Positions 6,378 through 64,000 are shown, numbered from the stretch's first letter. The stretch: 64,000 nt of DNA from Pyrinomonadaceae bacterium (GCA_036380435.1 DASVES010000154.1:924-64923), one strand, 5' to 3'. Notes: generated by a model from the letters alone, not told the origin. Made by a program: numbers and translations.

Positions 6378-6454
6378 CGCCGGGCCGCGAACGCGCAGGG
6401 AAGTTAGTGACGGGCCGCGGAGACGTTGAAGCAAGCGACGACGAGCCGCGGAGC

Positions 6455-6640
6455 GGCGGCAGAATGTAGCCCCGGTCGTGAGACCGGGGTGGCAGCAGGA
6501 TGAAAAGATTTTAGCCCCGGAGGGGCGAAAGAACATTAACCTTGACGGTGGCCGATGTTGATGTTCTTTCGCCCCTCCGGGGCTTTCGTCTCTTTCGCAC
6601 CTGTTCCCACGGCTCGCGCCGTGGGCTACATTCTGCCGCC
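6455..6640. repeat. Multi-hairpin (cloverleaf-like) palindromic element, copy 1
   Basis: Outer stem ggcggcagaatgtagcc / ggctacattctgccgcc. Small hairpins ccccggtc-gtga-gaccgggg and cccacggc-tcgc-gccgtggg. Central stem agccccggaggggcgaaagaa / ttctttcgcccctccggggct. Confidence 0.9.
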
Positions 6641-6711
6641 GCCTTCGGCGGCTGGCATCGCGTTCCTCCCACGCGGTGCGTAACGCTTCTGTCGTCATCG
6701 TCGTTGGAAAC

Positions 6712-6742
6712 TTGAATCGCGCCGCCCGATGTGGAATAAAAT
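6712..6742 (+). promoter_or_regulatory. Candidate sigma70-type promoter for the 6771 gene
   Basis: TTGAAT 6712-6717, 17-nt spacer, AATAAA/TAAAAT at 6735-6742. This implies a transcription start after the ATG at 6729. Confidence 0.35.
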
Positions 6743-8054: not shown

Positions 8055-8330
8055 GCAGTGAGCAGTAATGAGCGCCGGAGGCGCGGAAGAAAGTAGCCAC
8101 GGGCGACCGTCCCGTGGAATAGCCGTAAATAAAAATTGAAAGCCCCGGAGGGGCGAAAGAATCTGAAGCCTGCCTGAAACGTGGCTTGAGGTTCTTTCGC
8201 CCCTCCGGGGCTTTGATCCTTTAATCGAACTCGTACCCACGGCTCACGCCGTGGGCTACATTCTTTCGCGCCTCCGGCGCTCGTTGACGCCCGTAGCTTA
8301 CCGCGCACCGCTCACTGCTTACTGCTCACT
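8047..8330. repeat. Multi-hairpin palindromic element, copy 2, enclosed by AGCAGTG heptamer arms
   Basis: Outer arms agcagtgagcagtgagcagtaatgagcg / cgctcactgcttactgctcact. Next layer gagcgccggaggcgcggaagaaagtagcc / ggctacattctttcgcgcctccggcgctc. The central stem has the same agccccggaggggcgaaagaa sequence as copies 1 and 3. Confidence 0.9.
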
Positions 8331-38061: not shown

Positions 38062-38275
38062 GAGCGCCGGAGGCGCGGAAGAATGTAGCCCACGGCGTCA
38101 GCCGTGGGTTTTAAGCGGCAACCAAAATCAAAGCCCCGGAGGGGCGAAAGAAGTGCAGCGCGCGTCTAACGGCGGTCGCAATTTCTTTCGCCCCTCCGGG
38201 GCTTCATTTCCTTTGCCGGGCCTGTCCCCACGGCTCGCGCCGTGGGCTACACTCTTCCGCCGCTTTCAGCGGCTC
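38062..38275. repeat. Multi-hairpin palindromic element, copy 3
   Basis: gaagaatgtagcc / ggctacactcttc outer stem. cccacggc-gtca-gccgtggg, central agccccggaggggcgaaagaa / ttctttcgcccctccggggct, cccacggc-tcgc-gccgtggg. Degenerate heptamer arms lie outside at 38036-38055 and 38281-38301. Confidence 0.9.
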
Positions 38276-53838: not shown

Positions 53839-54777
53839 ATGCACGGGGATAATCACTTGGGGATACAAGACGACGCGCGGACGACGCCGAACCTCGGCCT
53901 CGTCTGCATCACCACCACGGACGCCGTGCGTTACCGCACGACGACGCGCAAGCGGCTCTTGCAGTTTGAGACCGCCGAGCAGAAGCGACGCTTGCGCGAA
54001 CTCTACGCCGCCAACCTCTCGCGCCTCGACGGCGCGCTCGACTTCTGCCTGTCGCAAGACTTGCGCCTCTATCGCATGACCTCGGGGCTGTTCCCGTTCG
54101 CCGACGACGAGGCGGGCGCCGACGTGCTCGAAGAGTTTCGCAGTGAGGCGGCGCGCGTCGGGCGTCGCGCCACGCAACGGGGCATCCGCCTCGTGCTCCA
54201 CCCCGACCAGTTCGTCGTCCTCAGCAGCGACTCGCCGCACGTCGTCGCCAACAGCATCAAGATTCTGGAGACGCACGCCCTCGTCATGGACCTCCTCGAA
54301 CAGCCGCGCTCCGCGTGGGCGCTCGTTGAGATTCACGGCGGGAAGTCGGGCCGCGCCGCGCAGCTCGTGAGCGTGGTGCGCGACCTGCCCGACGCCGTCC
54401 GCTCGCGCCTCGCCTTCGAGAACGACGAGTACTCGTACAGCGCCGCGGAGATTCTCGAAGTCTGCCACGCCGCCGGCGTGCCGATGGTCTTCGACGCGCA
54501 CCACCACGTCGTCAGCGAGCGGCTGGAATCTTACGACCACCCGAGCGTGGGCGAGATGCTGCGCTCCGCGCGCGCGACGTGGGCCGTGCCCGAGTGGCAG
54601 CTCGTCCACATCTCCAACGGGCGCGAGTCCTTCAACGACCGGCACCACAGCGACCTCATCCACGACATGCCCGAGGCGTACCGCGATGCGCCGTGGATCG
54701 AGGTCGAGGCGAAACACAAGGAGTTGGCGATAGAAAAACTGCGCGCCGGGTGGCTGGCGCAGGGCGCAGCGGCATAA
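53839..54777 (+). CDS. uvsE: UV damage endonuclease
   Basis: LGLVCITTTDAVRYRTTT…YRMTSGLFPF…LVLHPDQFVVL…LVEIHGG…FENDE…VFDAHHH, the UvdE TIM-barrel signature. Confidence 0.88.
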   Translation: MHGDNHLGIQDDARTTPNLGLVCITTTDAVRYRTTTRKRLLQFETAEQKRRLRELYAANLSRLDGALDFCLSQDLRLYRMTSGLFPFADDEAGADVLEEFRSEAARVGRRATQRGIRLVLHPDQFVVLSSDSPHVVANSIKILETHALVMDLLEQPRSAWALVEIHGGKSGRAAQLVSVVRDLPDAVRSRLAFENDEYSYSAAEILEVCHAAGVPMVFDAHHHVVSERLESYDHPSVGEMLRSARATWAVPEWQLVHISNGRESFNDRHHSDLIHDMPEAYRDAPWIEVEAKHKELAIEKLRAGWLAQGAAA

Positions 54778-54811
54778 TTCCCAAATCAACTTTCAGTTGA
54801 ACGAAGTGACG

Positions 54812-55438
54812 ATGCTCCGCGAGTCGGCTAAAAAAGGGCGCAAGCTCAGTCGCTCCTTCTACGCTCGCGACGACACGCTGCTCGTTGCGCGCGAGCTTCT
54901 CGGCAAGCGTCTGGTCGTGCCGGCGGCGGACGGCGCGCGCGTCTCGGGCCTCATCGTCGAGACCGAAGCCTACATGGGGCCGGAGGACAAAGCCTCGCAC
55001 GCCTTCGGGGGCCGCCGCACCGCGCGCACCGAGATGATGTACGCGCGGGGCGGCGCCGTCTACGTCTATCTCATCTATGGCCTGCACCACCAGTTCAACG
55101 TCGTGACCGGAACGGAAGGCATTCCGCACGCCATACTCGTGCGCGCGCTCGAACCCGTCGAGGGCGTCGATGTGATGCGCGCGCGGCGCGGCCTCGAAGA
55201 CGTGCGGAGGCTCGCGAGCGGGCCGGGCAAGCTCTGTCAGGCGCTTGCCCTCGACCGCGGCTATAACGGCGAAGACCTGACGCGAACGCGCGTGTGGCTT
55301 GAAGACGCGGGACGCCCCGTTAGCCCTCGCGAAATCGCGCGCGGCCCGCGCGTCGGCATCGACTACGCGCAGGAGTACATCGCCAAACCGTGGCGCTTCT
55401 GGGTCAAAGACAACCCCTTCGTCAGCAAAAAGGCTTAA
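54812..55438 (+). CDS. DNA-3-methyladenine glycosylase (AAG/Mpg family)
   Basis: …LLVARELLGKRLV…GLIVETEAYMGPEDKASHAFGGRRTARTEMMY…GGAVYVYLIYGLHHQFNVV…SGPGKLCQALAL. Confidence 0.9.
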   Translation: MLRESAKKGRKLSRSFYARDDTLLVARELLGKRLVVPAADGARVSGLIVETEAYMGPEDKASHAFGGRRTARTEMMYARGGAVYVYLIYGLHHQFNVVTGTEGIPHAILVRALEPVEGVDVMRARRGLEDVRRLASGPGKLCQALALDRGYNGEDLTRTRVWLEDAGRPVSPREIARGPRVGIDYAQEYIAKPWRFWVKDNPFVSKKA

Positions 55439-55567: not shown

Positions 55568-55708
55568 GCTTCTGGCATATGAAGACTCACGCGAAAGGCG
55601 CAAAGATAAGGCGCGGTTGAAACGTGGGGAGGGGGTTGGTCGCTTGTGTGCCGGCGGCGGATTGCTGTTACATTAGACAGCGACTTCACACGGACGGGAA
55701 AACCGAAC

Positions 55709-56647
55709 TTGCAGATAACTTTCCTCGGAACCAGCGCCGGCGTGCCGACGCGCTCGCGCAACGTCTCCTGCGTCGCGCTTCGCCTTGAGCAGCGCGGCGA
55801 GGTGTGGCTCTTCGACTGCGGCGAGGGCACGCAGCACCAGTTCCTGCGCTGCAACGAACTCAAGATCAGCCAGATCACGCGCGTCTTCATCACGCACATG
55901 CACGGCGACCACGTCTTCGGCCTCATGGGTCTTCTGGCCACCTGCGGCATGGCCGGGCACGCCCGACGCATCGATGTCTACGGCCCGCCGGGACTCGCCG
56001 AGTACGTCCGCGAGTCAACACGCCGCTCGCAGACGCGCTTCTCCTACCCGGCGGAGATACACACAATCGAGGGGGCCGGCCGTATCTATGAAGACGACGA
56101 GTACTCGGTCGTCTGCGACGCGCTCGTCCACCGCGCGCCGACCTTCGGTTACCGCGTGACGGAGAAAGACCGACCGGGCCGCTTCGACGTGGAGCACGCC
56201 CGCGCGCTCGGCATCCCCGAGGGGCCGCTCTACGGCCGCCTCAAGCGCGGCGAAAGCGTGGAGCTGCCGGACGGGCGCATCGTCAACGGCCGCGATCTCA
56301 CCGGCCCCACGGAGCCGGGGCGCAGCGTCGCCTATTGCACCGACACGGTCTACTGTCAGGCGTCGGTCGAACTCGCGCGCGACGCCGACGTGCTCATCCA
56401 CGAGGCGACCTTCGCGCGCGACGAGATAGAGCTTGCGCGCCAGAGCATGCACTCGACGACCGAGACGGCGGCCCGCGTCGCGCTTGAAGCGCAGGCGCGT
56501 CGCCTCGTCATCACGCACATCAGCCCGCGCTACGCCGAGGTCAACCCCGTCACCCCGCAAGACCTGCTCGAAGAGGCCCGCGCCGTTTTCCCTGATACCT
56601 ATCTCGCCCGCGACTTCCTCACCCTCGAAGTCCCGAGACGTGTGTGA
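55709..56647 (+). CDS. rnz: Ribonuclease Z
   Basis: LQITFLGTSAGVPTRSRNVSCVAL…WLFDCGEGTQHQ…ITHMHGDHVFGL. A TTG 55709 start fits the family N-terminus. GTG 55646 is the alternative. Confidence 0.9.
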   Translation: MQITFLGTSAGVPTRSRNVSCVALRLEQRGEVWLFDCGEGTQHQFLRCNELKISQITRVFITHMHGDHVFGLMGLLATCGMAGHARRIDVYGPPGLAEYVRESTRRSQTRFSYPAEIHTIEGAGRIYEDDEYSVVCDALVHRAPTFGYRVTEKDRPGRFDVEHARALGIPEGPLYGRLKRGESVELPDGRIVNGRDLTGPTEPGRSVAYCTDTVYCQASVELARDADVLIHEATFARDEIELARQSMHSTTETAARVALEAQARRLVITHISPRYAEVNPVTPQDLLEEARAVFPDTYLARDFLTLEVPRRV

Positions 56648-56668: not shown

Positions 56669-59434
56669 TCACTCGTGGCGCAGCGCGATAACAGGATCGA
56701 CGCGCGCGGCCCTGCGCGCCGGCAGGTACATGGCGAAGAGCGCCACCGTCGCCAGCAGCAGCGAGACGCCGCCGAACGCCAAAGGGTCGAGTGGACTTAA
56801 CCCGTAGAGGAAGCCGACGAGCACCTTCGAGAGCGCGGCGGCCCCGATGAGTCCCGCGACGACGCCCGCCAGAACGACGCGCATCCCCCCGCCGATGACG
56901 AGCCGCAACACGTCGCGCCGTCGCGCGCCCAGCGCCATGCGGACGCCTATCTCGTGCGTGCGTTGCGCGACCGAGTAAGAGATCACGCCGTACAGTCCGA
57001 TGGACGCAAGCACCAGCCCCATCGCCCCGAGCACGCTGCACGCCAACGTGAGCACGCGCGCCGGCAGCAACTGCTGCGCGACCGTTTCCTCCAGAAGCGT
57101 CACGTTGGGATAGATTCCCCGGTCGAACCGCTCGACCTCGTCGCGCACCGCGCCCAGCACGGAGCGCGGCTCGCCCCGCGTGCGCGCCAGCAGCCACACC
57201 TGCACCTCGTTCGTCGGCCGCAGCGGCAGGTAGACCAGAGCATCATCGACTTCGCTGATGCGAACGCTGCGCACGTCCTTCGCCACGCCGATTACCTCGC
57301 ACGAGGGCGAGTAAGGCTCCGGCTCGAACTGCCGCCCCGCAGCGTCGCGCGCCGGCGCGACCCCCAGACGCACGCGCCGGCCCAGCGGCTCCTCGCCGGG
57401 CACGAACAGACGCCGCGCCGTCGCCTCGCTGAGAATGGCGACGCGCGGCGCCGTCTCGCGCGTCTCCTGCTCCGTGAAGCCTCGGCCGCGGAGGACGGCG
57501 ATGCCCGTCGTCTCGAAGTAGTTCGGCGCGACCATCGTGTAGTAGGCCCGGAGTTGCCGGCCGCCGCCTTGCGCCCCCGGCTCAGCGACGGCCGCGACCG
57601 CCGTCTTGCGCGCGCCGGCCGTCCGCGTGCTCAGTGTGACGGACTCCACACCCGGCAACGCTTGCAGACGCTCCGAGAGTTGGCGATGCATCTCCGCGGT
57701 GCGCGCGGCGTCGTGGCCGAGCGAGAGCAGGTTGGGTTCGACGACGAGGAAGCGCGCGGTCTCGTAGCCGGCGTCGAGCGACTGGCCCTTGCGCACGCCC
57801 CTGATGAGCAGCCCGGCCCCGACGAGGAGCACGAGACAGACCGCCACCTGCACGCCGACGAGCACATCGCGCAGGCCGAGCCGGAAGATTCCGCGCCGGC
57901 GGACGCGCGCCGCGCCGCCGTCCGCCTGTTTGAGCGCCGAGACGAGGTCAGGCCGCGACGCCTGAAGGGCCGGGGCGAGGCCGAACGTCACACCGGCCAC
58001 GAGCGTCAGTAGCAGCGTGTAAGCGAAGACGCGCACGTCCGGGCTTAAGTCAAACGCGGTGTTGACCACGCCCATCTCCGGCGGCAGCCCGGCGAGCACG
58101 ACCTTGAGCACCACGTCGAGCGTCCACACGGCGAGCAGTAGCCCCAACGCTCCGCCCGCGAACGAAAGCATCAGGCTCTCCGTCACCAACTGCCGCACCA
58201 GACGGCCGCGCGTCGCCCCCAGCGCGAGGCGGACGGCAATCTCCCTGCGTCTCGCGGACGCGCGCGCGAGCAGGAGGTTGGCGACGTTGGCGCAGGCGAC
58301 GAGCAGCACCAATAGATCAGCCGCGAGGACGAGGAAGAACATCGTGCGCAGGAAGCCGTCGAGCCGCGCGAACGACGACGCCGGCTCGACCGCCGCACCG
58401 ACGCGCTCATTCGTCTCCGGGAACGAACGCGCGAGTTGCCCGGCGAGCACATCGATCTCGGCTTGCGCCTGCTCCGTCGTCACGCCGGGTTTGAGTCGCC
58501 CGACCGAGCGGAAGAAGGTCGCGCCGCGATCCCGGCTGTCGAAGATGGGGAGCACGCTGTTCTGCATCGCGACGGGCACCCACACATCGGGGACGAGCGG
58601 CGTCACGCCATAGAAGTCGGCTGCGGCCACGCCGACGACGTTCAACTGCCGGCCGTTGATCGCAAACGTCTTCCCCAGAACGCGGGTGTCGGCGCCGAAG
58701 CGTCGCTGCCAGTATTTGTGGCTGAGGACGGCGACGGGGTGCGTCCCCTGTGTCGTGTCCTCGTCGGACGTGAAGGTGCGACCCAGTTGCGTCGCGCCGC
58801 CTAGTAGGGAGAAATAGTTGCCCGAGACGAAGGCGATCTGCGCCACCTCGGCCCGCGCGCCGGCGTCGGCCGCCCCCGCTTCGGAAGGCGACTCGCTCAT
58901 CGTCAGCGGGGCGGGGCCGGCGTAGACGAGCATCCCGGCGAAGACCTGATTGTGTTCGTCGAAGTATGCGTGGTCGGGGTAGGAAGTGGTCTCGGCGCGC
59001 GTGCCGTCGGGGTTGACGCGCTCGACGCGGACGAGCGCGCCGGGGTCGCGGACGGGAAGGGGACGCCACGCGAAGGCGTTGCAGAGCGTGAAGACGGTGG
59101 TGTTGACGCCGATGCCGAGGGCGAGGGTGAAGACGGCCGCGGCCGCGAAGCCGGGGTTCTTCCGCAACACGCGCGCGCCGTAGCGCAGGTCGTGCCAGAC
59201 GGTCTCCAGCCAGCCGCCGCCGCGCACCTCGTAGCCGCGCTCACGCACACGCGTGCGGTTGCCGAAGCGACGCAAAGCCTCTCGGCGCGCCTCCTCCGGC
59301 GACATCCCACGCCGCACGTTCTCCTCCGCGCGCATGTCGATGTGGAAGCGCATCTCCTCGTCGATCTCGCGCCCGATCTCGTCGGCTCGCCAGAGGCCGC
59401 GCGCCCTCCGCACAAAAGACTTCATCCAGCCCAT
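56669..59434 (-). CDS. ADOP-family (Acidobacterial duplicated orphan permease) FtsX/MacB-like permease
   Basis: MGWMKSFVRRARGLWRADEIGREIDEEMRFHIDMRAEENVRRGMSPEEARREALRRFGN is the canonical ADOP N-terminus. Two FtsX modules. GGGAGG RBS. Starts 12 nt after the PadR stop. Confidence 0.9.
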   Translation of the reverse strand: MGWMKSFVRRARGLWRADEIGREIDEEMRFHIDMRAEENVRRGMSPEEARREALRRFGNRTRVRERGYEVRGGGWLETVWHDLRYGARVLRKNPGFAAAAVFTLALGIGVNTTVFTLCNAFAWRPLPVRDPGALVRVERVNPDGTRAETTSYPDHAYFDEHNQVFAGMLVYAGPAPLTMSESPSEAGAADAGARAEVAQIAFVSGNYFSLLGGATQLGRTFTSDEDTTQGTHPVAVLSHKYWQRRFGADTRVLGKTFAINGRQLNVVGVAAADFYGVTPLVPDVWVPVAMQNSVLPIFDSRDRGATFFRSVGRLKPGVTTEQAQAEIDVLAGQLARSFPETNERVGAAVEPASSFARLDGFLRTMFFLVLAADLLVLLVACANVANLLLARASARRREIAVRLALGATRGRLVRQLVTESLMLSFAGGALGLLLAVWTLDVVLKVVLAGLPPEMGVVNTAFDLSPDVRVFAYTLLLTLVAGVTFGLAPALQASRPDLVSALKQADGGAARVRRRGIFRLGLRDVLVGVQVAVCLVLLVGAGLLIRGVRKGQSLDAGYETARFLVVEPNLLSLGHDAARTAEMHRQLSERLQALPGVESVTLSTRTAGARKTAVAAVAEPGAQGGGRQLRAYYTMVAPNYFETTGIAVLRGRGFTEQETRETAPRVAILSEATARRLFVPGEEPLGRRVRLGVAPARDAAGRQFEPEPYSPSCEVIGVAKDVRSVRISEVDDALVYLPLRPTNEVQVWLLARTRGEPRSVLGAVRDEVERFDRGIYPNVTLLEETVAQQLLPARVLTLACSVLGAMGLVLASIGLYGVISYSVAQRTHEIGVRMALGARRRDVLRLVIGGGMRVVLAGVVAGLIGAAALSKVLVGFLYGLSPLDPLAFGGVSLLLATVALFAMYLPARRAARVDPVIALRHE

Positions 59435-59448
59435 CCCTTCGACCTCCC

Positions 59449-59793
59449 TCAAGCCGTCTGCAAGACCTTGCCGACCGCCAGCGCGAACCGGCGCCAACTC
59501 TCCTCCTCGACGTGTAGCTGCCGGCGCCCGGCGGCCGTGAGCTTGTAGAAGCGCGCCCTCCGGTTGTTCTCCGACACACCCCACTCCGAGGTGATCCACT
59601 CGCGCTCTTCGAGCCGGTAGAGGGCCGGGTAGAGCGACCCCTCCTCGACGCGCAACATCTCCTCGGCCATCTGCGCGATGCGCTGCCCGACGCCGTAGCC
59701 GTGCATCGCCCCGTGCGAGAGCGCCTTCAGGATGAGCAGATCGAGCGTGCCCTGGAGCAAATCCGCCTGTTTATCTTCACGCCGCTTGGTCAT
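59449..59793 (-). CDS. PadR family transcriptional regulator
   Basis: LLQGTLDLLILKALSHGAMHGYGVGQRIAQMAEEMLRVEEGSLYPALYRLEEREWI. AAGGAG RBS. Confidence 0.92.
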   Translation of the reverse strand: MTKRREDKQADLLQGTLDLLILKALSHGAMHGYGVGQRIAQMAEEMLRVEEGSLYPALYRLEEREWITSEWGVSENNRRARFYKLTAAGRRQLHVEEESWRRFALAVGKVLQTA

Positions 59794-59805
59794 CGATATC
59801 TCCTT

Positions 59806-59859
59806 CCCTAGACAAGGTAGGGGAGAAGTCTAAATCATCTTTCCCTACCTTGTCTAGGG
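59806..59859. promoter_or_regulatory. 17-bp perfect inverted repeat just upstream of the PadR RBS (candidate operator or 5' UTR hairpin)
   Basis: ccctagacaaggtaggg (59806-59822) / ccctaccttgtctaggg (59843-59859), 20-nt spacer. Confidence 0.6.
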
Positions 59860-60065
59860 GAGAGGCCGTCTGCGCCCATGAAGAAGTGGAAGACGTGTCG
59901 CGCCGGGAACATCTCGCCACGAAACTGCGGGCGGCGCGTGATGACTGTGCCAATTGCCCTGTGTACAACCTCTGCCGGCTGTGATACGATGTGCCACGAT
60001 TGCAACAACCGGCGCGCGGTGTGTCGGCGGCACTTCAAGAGCTTACGAGAGAAGAGGACAAGATC

Positions 60066-60530
60066 GTGTCATTCAATAAAGTGATCGTGGTAGGAAACCT
60101 GGGCAAAGACCCGGAGATGCGCTTCACGCCGCAGGGCACGCCGGTTTGCACCTTCACCGTCGCCACGAACGAGCGGCGCAAGGACAAGGCCGGCGAGCAG
60201 CAGGACGTGACCACGTGGTTCCGCGTCACGGTCTGGGGCAAGCAGGCCGAGACCGTGTCGAAGTACCTGACGAAGGGCCGCAGCGTCTACGTCGAGGGCC
60301 GGATGCACGTCGAGGAATGGACGGACAAGGACGGGAAGCTGCGTTTCACTCTGGAGCTGAACGCGAGCGACGTGCGCTTCATCGACGGCGCGCAGGGCGC
60401 ACCGTCCGAAGGCATCCCCGTCCGGCAGACGGGGCAGGTGCGTGAGTCGGCCGCGCGCGCGGGCGTCGGCGGCGGCGGTCGCGCGCCCTCGTCCGCCGCG
60501 GACATCGACGACGACTCGATCCCGTTCTAA
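60066..60530 (+). CDS. ssb: Single-stranded DNA-binding protein
   Basis: GTG start. VSFNKVIVVGNLGKDPEMRFTPQGTPVCTFTVATNE…WFRVTVWGKQAE. Gly-rich tail ending in the acidic tip DDDSIPF. Confidence 0.92.
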   Translation: MSFNKVIVVGNLGKDPEMRFTPQGTPVCTFTVATNERRKDKAGEQQDVTTWFRVTVWGKQAETVSKYLTKGRSVYVEGRMHVEEWTDKDGKLRFTLELNASDVRFIDGAQGAPSEGIPVRQTGQVRESAARAGVGGGGRAPSSAADIDDDSIPF

Positions 60531-60668
60531 CGCCGTTGCGGCGGGCGGCGCAGACTAAAAACCTAACGACGCGGACAAACGCGAGGTGATTGAATTCCCG
60601 TGCGGCGGGGCGTTGAGACGCGCGCTCATGCGTTCGTCTCGCCGGCCCGGCTGTTGTATCTTCGACGC

Positions 60669-62084
60669 GTGAAGGATTCGACGACGCTCGTCTTAAGCTT
60701 CGAGGCCGGGACGCTCCTGCTCGAAGGGGTTGGCCCCACAGAGAAAGCGCCCACGGCCTTCCGCTGGGACGAGCGCGTCGGGCGCTGGCGCGCGCCGGCC
60801 AGCTCCTACCGTCAGGTCGTCAGCGAGTTGACGCGCGGCCGCGTCGCCTTCCACGACCGCGCGCGCGGCTATCATCAGTTCGACTTTCCCACCAAGTTCC
60901 TCGTCGAGCCACGGCCCTACCAGCACGAGGCGATCCGCGAGTGGAAGGCCGCGCTAGGGTGCGGCGTCGTCATCCTGCCGACGGGCGCGGGCAAGAGTCT
61001 CGTCGCGCAGATGGCCATCGAGCAGGTGAAGCGTTCGACGCTCGTCGTCGTGCCCACGCTCGATTTGATGAACCAGTGGTACGACCTCCTGCTCTCCTGC
61101 TTCGAGGCCGAGGTGGGACTCATCGGCGGCGGCTTCTACGAAGTGGGCGCGCTCACCGTGACGACCTACGCCTCCGCCTTCCGCTTCATGGAGCGACTCG
61201 GGAACGCGTTCGGCCTCGTCATCTTCGACGAGTGCCACCACCTCCCCTCCGGCTCCCACCGCTACGCCGCCGACCTGTGCATCGCGCCCTACCGTCTGGG
61301 CCTCACGGCCACGCCCGAGCGCGCCGACGGCGGCGACCAACTTCTCGAACAACTCATCGGCCCCACCGTCTATCGCCGCGAGGCGCGCGAGTTCGCCGGC
61401 GAATATCTTTCGGACTACACGGTCGAGCACGTCAGCGTGCGCCTCACGACGGAAGAGCGCGCCCGTTACGAGAGCGAGCGCGAAATCTTCCGTCGCTTCC
61501 TGAGCGAAAAGGGAATCGGCCTCGGCTCTTTGCGCGGGTGGCAGATGTTCGTCGCGGCGAGCGCGCGCACGAGTGAGGGGCGGCGCGCAATGATGGCCTA
61601 CCGCGAGTCGAAGCGCATCGCGCTCGGCACAGACGCGAAGCTACGCGTGCTGGGCGAGTTGCTGCTGCGGCACCGGCGCGAGAAGGTGCTCGTCTTCACC
61701 GCCGAGAACGAGATGGTTTATCGCATCTCGCGCCGTTTCCTGATACCCGCCATCACACACGAGACCAACGTCAAGGAGCGGCGCGCATGGCTCGAAGCCT
61801 TCAACCACGGCGACGTGCTCGCGCTCGTCACCTCGAAGGTCTTGAACGAAGGCGTCAACATCCCCGACGCGTCCGTGGCCGTCGTGCTCTCCGGCTCCGG
61901 CTCCTCGCGCGAGCACGTCCAGCGCCTCGGCCGCATCCTCCGCAAGCTGCCCGGCAAGGAGGCCACGCTCTACGAGGTCGTCACCGAAGACACGACCGAG
62001 GAGCAGATCAGCCGCCGGCGGGGCGGCGAACAGTTCGACGCGAAGCGACAACGCGCGCCGACCACCGCCGAGATACCCTTCTAA
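60669..62084 (+). CDS. XPB/Ssl2 (ERCC3/RAD25)-like SF2 DNA helicase
   Basis: N-terminal …LSFEAGTLLLEG… domain. RPYQHEA, motif I ILPTGAGKS, motif II IFDECHH, motif III GLTATPER, motif VI HVQRLGRILR. The start (GTG 60669 or GTG 60600) is uncertain. Confidence 0.85.
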   Translation: MKDSTTLVLSFEAGTLLLEGVGPTEKAPTAFRWDERVGRWRAPASSYRQVVSELTRGRVAFHDRARGYHQFDFPTKFLVEPRPYQHEAIREWKAALGCGVVILPTGAGKSLVAQMAIEQVKRSTLVVVPTLDLMNQWYDLLLSCFEAEVGLIGGGFYEVGALTVTTYASAFRFMERLGNAFGLVIFDECHHLPSGSHRYAADLCIAPYRLGLTATPERADGGDQLLEQLIGPTVYRREAREFAGEYLSDYTVEHVSVRLTTEERARYESEREIFRRFLSEKGIGLGSLRGWQMFVAASARTSEGRRAMMAYRESKRIALGTDAKLRVLGELLLRHRREKVLVFTAENEMVYRISRRFLIPAITHETNVKERRAWLEAFNHGDVLALVTSKVLNEGVNIPDASVAVVLSGSGSSREHVQRLGRILRKLPGKEATLYEVVTEDTTEEQISRRRGGEQFDAKRQRAPTTAEIPF

Positions 62085-62095
62085 AGAGGACTGGA

Positions 62096-63304
62096 ATGCT
62101 GACGGCCGACCTCGCGATGAGCTGGCAACGTGGCGAACAGGTTCGGCCGCGTCAGCTCGCCACGAAAGACCCGCGCCACCTGCAAACTGCCGCCGACCTC
62201 GTCGCCATCTTCGAGGCGCACGCGGGGCGCGAGCGGCACGAGCTGGACGAAGCTCTGGGCGAGTACGTCGGCACGGGGACGGACTACCGCGTCCTGCGCG
62301 GCCTGATAAAACTTCTCACTGACCGTTGTCGCTTCGAGACGGACGTGTCCGTCGAGCCTTCCGAGATTCGCCGCGCGCTCTTCCTCAAGGCGCGCGAGCG
62401 CCACCCCGTCGCGGGCGCGGACGGCGCGGCGCGCTTGGATGTCGCCGCCGAAGTCGCGTCCTCCCTCGGGTGCGACGCCGAGACCGTGCTCAGGAGTATG
62501 TACGCCGACCTACCGGCCGAGCAGCGCCTGCTGGAGTTCGACCCCACGGGGCCGGGCGAACTCATCGACCTCTACAACCTCGCGCAGGCACAGGCGCTCC
62601 TCTACCGCTCGGTCGAGATGCGCCTGTGGGTCGAGCCGCAGGGGCCTGACGGCTACCGCGAGTTGTTCGGCGCCATCAAGGCGTACCGGCTGATTCACAC
62701 CGTCCGAGGCGACGCGGCCACGGGCTACGAGATAACTTTGAGCGGGCCGGTCTCGATGTTCCACCGCTCGCAGAAGTACGGCGTGCAGATGGCCGTCTTC
62801 CTGCCCGCGCTGCTACTCTGCCGCGGCTGGCGCATGCGCGCCGAGATCAACACTAGACACGGCCACGCCTACTTCGAACTCGACAGCCGGCAGACCTCTC
62901 TGCGCTCACACTATCTGGAAGTGACCCCTTACCAGAACCCCGCGGCGGAGAAGTTCGCGGAGAGCTGGGAGCGCGCCGGCTGCGCCTCGCTGCTGGAGCC
63001 GAACCGAGAGGTCATCGGCCACGGCGATACCGCCTTCATCCCCGACTTCTCTATCACGCACCCCTCGGGCCGCCAGTTCTATCTTGAATTCCTCGGCTTC
63101 TGGACGCCCGAGCACCTGCGCGCGCGCCTCGCGGAGTTTGAGCGACACCGCCTGCGTAATTATCTCCTCGCCGTGTGGGAAGACCTGCGCGGGACGCGCG
63201 AGCCGCTCACGAATGTCCCGCCGAACGTCGTCGTCTTCAAAAAGAATCTCGACCCCTCAATCGTCGAACTCGCCATCAGTAAACTCGTCGCGGCCGAGGC
63301 GTAA
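62096..63304 (+). CDS. DUF790 / Bax1-like endonuclease
   Basis: Starts 11 nt after the helicase stop. C-terminal nuclease block AFIPDFSITHPSGRQFYLEFLGFWTPEHLRARL is typical of DUF790. Confidence 0.82.
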   Translation: MLTADLAMSWQRGEQVRPRQLATKDPRHLQTAADLVAIFEAHAGRERHELDEALGEYVGTGTDYRVLRGLIKLLTDRCRFETDVSVEPSEIRRALFLKARERHPVAGADGAARLDVAAEVASSLGCDAETVLRSMYADLPAEQRLLEFDPTGPGELIDLYNLAQAQALLYRSVEMRLWVEPQGPDGYRELFGAIKAYRLIHTVRGDAATGYEITLSGPVSMFHRSQKYGVQMAVFLPALLLCRGWRMRAEINTRHGHAYFELDSRQTSLRSHYLEVTPYQNPAAEKFAESWERAGCASLLEPNREVIGHGDTAFIPDFSITHPSGRQFYLEFLGFWTPEHLRARLAEFERHRLRNYLLAVWEDLRGTREPLTNVPPNVVVFKKNLDPSIVELAISKLVAAEA

Positions 63305-63356
63305 TCCGTCACACTTCGGCCGGCGTGCGGCGCCGGTCCCGTGGTCGCGAAATCTG

Positions 63357-63386
63357 TTGCAACGCGACCGGGAGTTGCGATATAGA
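63357..63386 (+). promoter_or_regulatory. Candidate sigma70-type promoter for the KAP NTPase gene
   Basis: TTGCAA 63357-63362, 18-nt spacer, TATAGA 63381-63386. Confidence 0.35.
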
Positions 63387-63559
63387 TGCCGCCGCGCGGG
63401 GCGCGGGGACTGATCCGCCGGGACACGTTACCCGCCCCCTCCGGTTGAAAACTTCGGACGGCCAGACACTCGCCACCCTGTCTGTCGCCACTCACGGGCG
63501 CGCGCGTCACACCGCACATCCCATCCTGCCTACGCAGGGGCCGCAAAGGATCGGCTGCT

Positions 63560-64000
63560 ATGGCCGTAATGATCGACGGACCATCCACACGACAACAGTC
63601 CGAGGCCGCGCCGGAGCAGGCGTCGGTGACCGCACCGGAGTCTCTGCGAGGCCCCTGCATCACGAAGCTGGTCAGTGACAAGCCCGTCGAGCAGGTCGGG
63701 TCGGACGATGAAGGCGCGCACAAGCGTCTGGCGTCTGCGCTTGCCGACCTCATGCGCGGCGAGGAGAAGGGTGGCGTCTCCGTCGGACTCGAAGGCGACT
63801 GGGGCTCCGGGAAGACGAGCGTCCTCATGCTCTTTAAGCAGGAGTTGCGAGACGCCGGGGAACTCATCGAACCGTCCCCCGAGGACGAGGGACAAGAGGG
63901 GGAGAAGGCGGCGGGGGCGGCCTTGCCTGCCCCCGGGAGCGGCGCCAAAGATTTCGCCGTCATCACCTTCGACGCGTGGGCGCACGAGAAAGACCCTCTG
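63560..64000 (+). CDS. KAP family P-loop NTPase, N-terminal fragment (runs off the window)
   Basis: Not in the ORF track because it is open-ended. ATG 63560, in frame to base 64000. …HKRLASALADLMRGEEKGGVSVGLEGDWGSGKTSVLMLF…AVITFDAWAHEKDPL matches the KAP Walker A context and the downstream FDAW motif. Confidence 0.75.
   Translation, partial: MAVMIDGPSTRQQSEAAPEQASVTAPESLRGPCITKLVSDKPVEQVGSDDEGAHKRLASALADLMRGEEKGGVSVGLEGDWGSGKTSVLMLFKQELRDAGELIEPSPEDEGQEGEKAAGAALPAPGSGAKDFAVITFDAWAHEKDPL

Follow-up and report, generated by a model that had tools for sequence, protein, structure and literature searches.

The 3' end of a 64,000-nucleotide (nt) stretch of a Pyrinomonadaceae genome (Acidobacteriota), referred to here as the window, encodes a single-stranded DNA-binding protein (SSB), an XPB-type helicase, a Bax1/DUF790 nuclease and the beginning of a KAP-family P-loop NTPase (positions 60066-64000). 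Our comparative analysis makes it likely that XPB and Bax1 form an autonomous, vertically inherited operon for DNA repair or junction processing, next to a housekeeping ssb gene that is present by synteny and an unrelated, lineage-specific KAP gene. A previous sequence-only reading of this DNA had grouped the four genes into a single module, either a repair machine or part of a defence system. The grouping does not hold, as KAP is absent from all 80 related loci, none of 70 loci with KAP relatives has XPB or Bax1, and ssb lies nearby in only 22 of 51; of the two functions proposed, repair is favoured by the evidence and a defence module is not. The survey of XPB-DUF790 pairs for co-occurrence with KAP or ssb, put forward together with that reading, found no consistent association with KAP and thus speaks against the grouping on its own terms.

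The comparison is based on 80 related loci (L001 and following) collected in a Bax1 scan with one genome per species. All 80 are from Pyrinomonadaceae or Blastocatellia (Acidobacteriota), at 53-70% identity, and at least 2 kb of sequence downstream of Bax1 was available in 69 of them. L001 and L005 are the nearest species-level relatives of the window, and a protein search gave L154, L155, L156 and L157 as the closest relatives, with Bax1 proteins that are 91%, 83%, 75% and 72% identical, respectively. No entry identical to the window Bax1 was found. The family is sizeable, with 1592 clusters (50% identity, E <= 1e-10).

The helicase gene (60669..62084, plus strand, GTG start) encodes a protein of 471 amino acids (aa) in which the DRD, HD1, an R-A-D motif, the ThM region and HD2 can be recognized. 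Pfam matches to XPB_DRD (7.6e-16; 58.2 bits against a cut-off of 26), ResIII, Helicase_C and ERCC3_RAD25_C, together with a full-length match to A. fulgidus XPB (6p66_A, 2fwr) that includes the DRD (351 bits, E = 6e-104), bear out the XPB-type SF2 helicase that had been proposed at this position. The GTG at 60669 fits the N-termini of the orthologues better than an upstream GTG at 60600. Among 69 orthologues, Walker A (GAGKS), DECHH and motif VI (QRLGRILR) are invariant or nearly so. Where archaeal XPB has its RED motif, the window clade carries R-A-D (residues 218-220; 61320-61328), with R218 and D220 invariant across the clade and A, T or G instead of E in the middle. In the sequence alignment, the ThM region (residues 245-330) can be placed on the corresponding region of A. 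fulgidus XPB free of gaps. The NCBIfam equivalog repair_heli_XPB scores 204.5 bits, below its cut-off of 610; judged by its domains, the window helicase is an XPB homolog outside this narrow equivalog.

An assignment of the helicase to PbeA or to the Dnd-associated restriction helicase was considered and rejected, as the PADLOC and NCBIfam matches to these proteins cover partial domains only. With PbeA the window XPB shares the SF2 core (PADLOC 177.7 bits, residues 172-449); it has a DRD, and lacks the long N-terminus of PbeA. The match to the Dnd-associated TIGR04095 (134.8 bits against a cut-off of 600) is likewise partial and confined to the helicase core. No other Pbe or Dnd components were found among the four neighbouring proteins scanned (Bax1, SSB and KAP match no Pbe or Dnd model).

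The nuclease gene (62096..63304, plus strand, 402 aa) follows XPB after a gap of exactly 11 nt, which holds a GAGGA ribosome-binding site. The protein matches Pfam PF05626 (1.7e-102) over residues 1-390 of its 402 and A. fulgidus Bax1 (6p66_B) with E = 9.6e-35, in agreement with the DUF790 nuclease and the spacing given in the sequence-only reading. E285, D317 and E331 correspond to the triad E275/D305/E318 in the C-terminal nuclease domain of A. fulgidus Bax1. D317 and E331 are invariant in 80/80 sequences, and position 285 is E in 58/80 and D in 12/80. Scores against the NCBIfam equivalogs EndNBax1ARCFU and SULTO (171.8 and 120.3 bits) fall short of their cut-offs of 500; both models are narrow and archaeal. 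The full-length archaeal matches, the conserved ATPase motifs and the nuclease triad identify the two proteins, at the level of homology, as XPB and Bax1.

We found neither a defence nor a phage signature for Bax1: it matches no PADLOC model and no PHROG family, and relatives are absent from 50,697 phage genomes. Scans of viral contigs gave no Bax1 and no KAP, using two peptide patterns for each and therefore with limited sensitivity. In the literature searched, no paper ties Bax1 to anti-phage defence.

The parallel with the archaeal XPB-Bax1 pair holds for full-length matches, gene order and the nuclease triad. The archaeal complex, which has been characterised structurally and biochemically (PMC7293015), is encoded in the same gene order and with similarly tight spacing (A. 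fulgidus 6P66; S. tokodaii 6P4F/6P4W/6P4O). The window XPB aligns to its archaeal counterpart throughout, with the DRD, the two RecA-like domains and the ThM region all covered, and the window Bax1 does so through the N-terminal, central and nuclease domains, with the E/D/E metal-binding triad kept. Differences are the host, here a bacterium in which the pair is known from sequence, the altered RED motif described above, and the length of Bax1 (402 aa, vs 468 aa in A. fulgidus). Moreover, only the aspartate is kept of the second active site described in the N-terminal part of A. fulgidus Bax1 (D133/E135): D138 is invariant, whereas the position of E135 is a proline.

Among bacteria, a parallel is found in Deinococcus, where DUF790 occurs in about 40 named species, on chromosomes as well as plasmids. 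In the five Deinococcus contexts analyzed (L152, L153, L158, L160 and L161), a DRD-containing XPB overlaps or abuts DUF790, in the same order as in the window. The Deinococcus Bax1 proteins are 32-35% identical to that of the window, and four of the five contexts show a gene overlap of 14 nt, with 2 nt between the genes in D. koreensis, in contrast to the gap of 11 nt observed here. None of the five has KAP or ssb, and the neighbours are mostly metabolic; here, too, these genes are no fixed partners of a pair that is widespread in the genus. In Deinococcus gobiensis (L161 / L162, 4501-5565) a spore-photoproduct-lyase-like gene (PF20903) lies directly upstream of XPB-DUF790, with padR nearby. 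M. tuberculosis XPB, studied on its own in vitro, likewise belongs to the bacterial XPB-family 3'-5' helicases, and its role in the cell is unknown; it has no known Bax1 partner, whereas in the window the gene for a partner follows after 11 nt. That DUF790 (COG3372) is associated with an SF2 helicase was reported for Archaea and Cyanobacteria in 2005 (PMC1189080). The role of the pair in bacteria is essentially unstudied, as the sequence-only reading stated: a 2012 paper on M. tuberculosis XPB noted that a complex with a Bax1-type partner had not been identified in bacteria, and a 2026 review calls the function of bacterial XPB "elusive".

XPB and Bax1 are a stable, vertically inherited unit, as is evident from their adjacency, from their correlated divergence and from a promoter-like element at a fixed distance. 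Of the 71 related loci with enough upstream sequence, 67 have XPB immediately before Bax1 and in the same orientation, more than expected by chance; the four exceptions are one split XPB, one insertion of 3.8 kb and two loci without XPB. Pairwise identities of XPB and Bax1 are strongly correlated (Mantel r = 0.86), a value reached in 0 of 999 permutations. Upstream of XPB, the window has the extended -10-like element TGTTGTATCT (60652..60661, plus strand), 8 nt before the start codon. A TG(A/T)TGTAA(T/C)CT element is found at this fixed position, 8-12 nt before the XPB start, in 34 of 61 upstream regions (scored with the pattern TGn[TGA][AG]TAnn[CT]), vs a mean of 2.9 and a maximum of 7 matches in shuffled sequences. 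We infer that this element is an extended -10 promoter that would give rise to a leaderless or very short-leader xpb-bax1 mRNA, and xpb-bax1 may therefore be transcribed on its own even with ssb upstream. A scan for sigma-70 consensus promoters gave no site near XPB or KAP. The scan for intrinsic terminators between 59700 and 64000 (0 sites vs 2.4 expected) is uninformative because the genome has a content of guanine plus cytosine (GC) of 67%.

Could the helicase and nuclease themselves constitute a defence-like or selfish module that restricts foreign DNA independently of KAP? We consider this unlikely. The combination of an SF2 helicase with a PD-(D/E)XK nuclease does resemble the architecture of restriction enzymes, and the family description of 2005, which suggested a role in repair or recombination, did not exclude a "selfish character" (PMC1189080). 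The pair is able to move, since Deinococcus carries it on non-mobilizable plasmids and haloarchaea on megaplasmids, at times as several copies. Transposases and fragments of restriction-modification (R-M) systems are found close to one of the Deinococcus copies, and HNH and phage-like (phrog_10048) genes are found beside the pair in relatives of the window. Against this stand the vertical inheritance throughout the family, the conserved chromosomal position and the co-evolution of the two partners. The helicase matches to PbeA and the Dnd restriction enzyme, which might be taken in favour of such a module, concern the core only, whereas the match to genuine XPB is far stronger and full-length. 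Also, Bax1 is without a match in PADLOC, neither phage genomes nor the viral contigs covered by the limited scan contain the pair, and the genes next to it in the window serve repair and housekeeping.

The ssb gene (60066..60530, plus strand, GTG start, 154 aa) encodes a canonical bacterial SSB, with Pfam PF00436 at 1.5e-39 and NCBIfam TIGR00621 at 149.7 bits (cut-off 53.95). Both the OB-fold SSB domain and the acidic (D/E)n-IPF tip are present, the C-terminus reading ...DIDDDSIPF, and a D/E-rich tip ending in IPF is kept in 25/25 neighbouring SSB orthologs. The genes that precede ssb, padR and one for a MacB/FtsX permease, are on the minus strand and are not rpsF/rpsR, and thus both the acidic tip and the unusual context noted in the sequence-only reading are confirmed. 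An ssb gene in the same orientation lies at most 3.5 kb upstream of XPB in the 22 of 51 loci mentioned above, and adjoins XPB directly (46-311 nt) in just six of these. Most other linked loci have an intervening gene (c4) that matches phrog_10048, a phage family of unknown function; a gene matching this family is found between ssb and XPB in 24 loci, and is not present in the window. One further neighbour cluster, the 'SWIM' cluster c13, was set aside, as it partly reflects an antisense open reading frame (ORF) over ssb.

The proximity of ssb might point to a dedicated three-part machine, with an SSB specialised for the helicase-nuclease. Apart from the co-orientation, the C-terminus of the window XPB (62067-62081) reads ...TTAEIPF and resembles the tip of SSB. 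This ending is found in none of about 70 orthologs, and is therefore probably due to chance. Over half of the loci and all five Deinococcus contexts have no ssb nearby, c4 separates ssb from XPB in most linked loci, and XPB has a conserved promoter-like element of its own. The SSB is canonical and its divergence equals that of the neighbouring housekeeping genes, so a specialised machine of this kind appears improbable. In the simplest reading, the window gene looks like the ordinary housekeeping ssb of the cell, placed here by synteny.

Downstream of Bax1 the picture is more variable. Genes following Bax1 in relatives include those for a CoiA-like nuclease, an RNase T-type exonuclease, an HNH nuclease, homoserine dehydrogenase, RtcA, a histidine phosphatase and a PNPOx-like protein. 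The CoiA-like gene follows directly in 17 loci and is found within 6 kb in 27; 10 loci have the RNase T-type exonuclease and 7 the HNH nuclease (phrog_5200). In many relatives (L006, L007, L016, L017, L020, L025, L033, L036 and others) a co-oriented nuclease gene starts -23 to +60 nt after Bax1. The CoiA-like, RNase T-type and HNH nuclease genes of the relatives are not present in the window. The variable genes could reflect a functional partnership or an insertion hotspot. In a more far-reaching view, XPB-Bax1 would be the unchanging core of a modular system for nucleic-acid processing, acting in conflict or recombination rather than in plain repair, with a downstream slot for swappable effectors; these could be the CoiA-like nuclease, the RNase T-type exonuclease, the HNH nuclease or a 3'-5' exonuclease, and KAP in the window. 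We give this possibility little weight.

In the window, the slot after Bax1 is occupied by the 5' end of a KAP-family P-loop NTPase gene (63560..64000, plus strand), an ORF of 147 codons that is open at the window end. It contains the GDWGSGKTS Walker A and FDAWAHEKD motifs, as the sequence-only reading had it, and matches PF07693 at 37.5 bits (cut-off 20). The gene is separated from bax1 by a spacer of 255 nt (63305..63559), where synteny with the relatives breaks: homology of the window to L154 at the DNA level ends at 63303, at the stop codon of Bax1, and the spacer is shared only with L081. No KAP was found by tblastn and a profile hidden Markov model (HMM) in any of the 80 related Bax1 loci, including the 69 with at least 2 kb of downstream sequence. 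With the profile HMM, built from N-termini of 450 residues, the best score in a related locus was 12.6 bits, vs 80.9 bits for the window fragment as a positive control. KAP is also absent in L154, L155, L156 and L157, where PNPOx-like, histidine phosphatase or metallophosphatase genes follow Bax1.

The only close homolog of the KAP fragment among 5.8 billion proteins is P0001 (57% identity), which is encoded on L081. This contig of 1178 bp derives from a close relative and is the only repeat of the arrangement of the Bax1 3' end, the spacer and KAP. Its end (~1087-1176) matches the KAP family on the opposite strand, probably as an inverted assembly artefact, and the last ~40 residues of P0001 (249 aa) are spurious for this reason. 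In a metagenome scan, KAP relatives were found only at 28-42% identity, at 70 loci, none of which has XPB, Bax1 or SSB. The base composition of the KAP gene (GC 0.667; GC at third codon positions 0.80 vs 0.86-0.90 in neighbours) is close to that of its neighbours, which argues against recent acquisition from a distant donor. Upstream of KAP, TTGCAA-N18-TATAGA was considered as a promoter and dropped, as it is no better conserved than its surroundings.

KAP is thus not a partner of XPB-Bax1, given its absence from the related loci and the closest relatives, the break in synteny and the fact that its relatives are never found beside XPB or Bax1. A single nucleic-acid-targeting defence system of XPB-Bax1 and KAP that extends past the window is close to refuted by these data, by the break falling exactly at the Bax1 stop codon and by the five Deinococcus pairs without KAP, notwithstanding that bax1 and KAP are on one strand 255 nt apart, adjoin once more on the short contig L081, and that KAPs of this subfamily are found within operons for type I R-M systems.

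The KAP gene itself is plausibly defence-related, by analogy to known systems. The distant relatives are mostly 1100-1300 aa long and combine a KAP domain that has a hydrophobic insert with a long C-terminal part for which no domain family gave a match. A hydrophobic stretch follows the FDAW motif in P0001 and the distant relatives; in the window, the corresponding region and the Walker B motif would lie beyond the end. Eleven of 65 relatives, about 1100 aa long, are located inside type I R-M operons in the order HsdM-HsdS-KAP-HsdR (L093, L101, L106, L115, L116, L122, L123, L124, L130, L143 and L144). In L106, a protein with a Schlafen/AlbA_2 domain is encoded alongside the operon. PifA, QatA and E. 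faecalis EF_KAP (2026) have a Walker A region and FDAW motif like those of the window KAP, and the defence KAPs resemble its relatives in their great length, in the hydrophobic insert that follows Walker A and in a large, uncharacterised C-terminal region. Assignment to PifA or QatA as a family was rejected, the PADLOC matches being limited to a partial domain: they cover ~45-65 N-terminal residues of the window fragment and ~100 in full-length relatives, and the score for the QatA equivalog is 33.6 bits, with 600 as its cut-off. Any QatB/C/D partner genes would lie past the window end. Single-gene KAP NTPases were validated experimentally as anti-phage proteins in 2026 (PMC13552941). The window KAP is most probably an NTPase of the anti-phage type that is membrane-associated and acts on its own. 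Of the defence-type neighbour envisaged by the sequence-only reading, the defence character remains plausible in the light of the R-M operons and the validated proteins, and the shared system with XPB-Bax1 does not.

The upstream neighbourhood of the pair consists of repair and housekeeping genes, in the window as well as in L001 and L005, and the spore-photoproduct-lyase-like neighbour in Deinococcus gobiensis is in line with this. On the plus strand of the window are uvdE, for a UV damage endonuclease (53839..54777; Pfam UvdE 2.5e-62), mpg, for a methylpurine-DNA glycosylase (54797..55438; Pfam Pur_DNA_glyco 1.1e-67), and a gene for a hydrolase with a metallo-beta-lactamase fold (55646..56647; Pfam Lactamase_B_2 3.6e-23), which we read from its sequence as RNase Z-like. 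These are followed by an insert of padR and the MacB/FtsX-type permease on the minus strand (56669..59793; Pfam MacB_PCD, FtsX and PadR), and then by ssb, xpb and bax1. The order uvdE-mpg-RNaseZ-like-ssb-XPB-Bax1 is also found in L001 and L005; nine related loci have mpg close to the pair, arranged in one of two ways, and the RNase Z-like gene is directly upstream of ssb in L001, L002, L004 and L011. Among the related loci, only L005 has the padR-permease insert at the corresponding position. An inverted repeat upstream of padR (59803-59822 / 59843-59862; arms of 20 nt, spacer of 20 nt, 95% complementarity, with CCCTAGACAAGGTAGGG as core) is kept in L005 (~6662-6716). This repeat may be the PadR operator that controls the padR-permease pair, and lies outside the helicase module.

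Elsewhere in the window, the Rfam Acido-Lenti-1 RNA motif is present in five intergenic copies, at 6444-6489 (minus strand), 6606-6653 (plus), 8236-8281 (plus), 38063-38108 (minus) and 38227-38274 (plus). These include two divergent pairs ~120 nt apart, and the copies show compensatory changes in both hairpins. No transfer RNA genes were found across the whole 64 kb.

Taken together, the 3' end of the window would comprise three functionally separate units: ssb, xpb-bax1 and KAP. The SSB is predicted to be an ordinary bacterial protein with an acidic tip that recruits partners. The xpb-bax1 genes would form a self-contained operon of two genes with its own, putative extended -10-type promoter, encoding a helicase-nuclease heterodimer of the archaeal kind. 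By homology, XPB may bind a junction of duplex and single-stranded DNA or a bubble, and ATP-driven translocation would then open the DNA; the N-terminal domain of Bax1 is expected to dock on the ThM/HD2 region of XPB, such that its C-terminal PD-(D/E)XK-like site (E285/D317/E331) could cut the displaced strand near the junction. A role in chromosomal DNA repair, or in the processing of forks or bubbles, beside other repair routes in Pyrinomonadaceae is consistent with this arrangement. KAP would be a lineage-specific accessory gene in a variable spot after Bax1, with no functional tie to XPB-Bax1.

Several considerations weigh against a repair operon with unrelated flanking genes. [quoted passage not shown] The evidence for the xpb-bax1 promoter is its conservation, and beyond the nearest relatives the repair neighbourhood is not kept. 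Plasmid-borne copies of the pair in Deinococcus and haloarchaea, already mentioned, fit less well with a chromosomal repair function, as does the high variability of the gene after Bax1, with its nucleases and phage-like genes. Finally, KAP is known here from its first 147 codons, with the rest of the gene and any downstream genes outside the window.

The locus gives no pointer to a new defence system; the helicase-nuclease is of a kind already known biochemically in archaea, and KAP is best regarded on its own, as a candidate single-gene defence protein. If our reading of xpb-bax1 is correct, Pyrinomonadaceae, which are abundant soil Acidobacteria, carry an XPB of the archaeal/eukaryotic type and its Bax1 partner as a stable chromosomal pair. 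They would then offer, alongside Deinococcus, a bacterial setting for studies on the function of XPB-Bax1 in vivo, a question that is open even in archaea.

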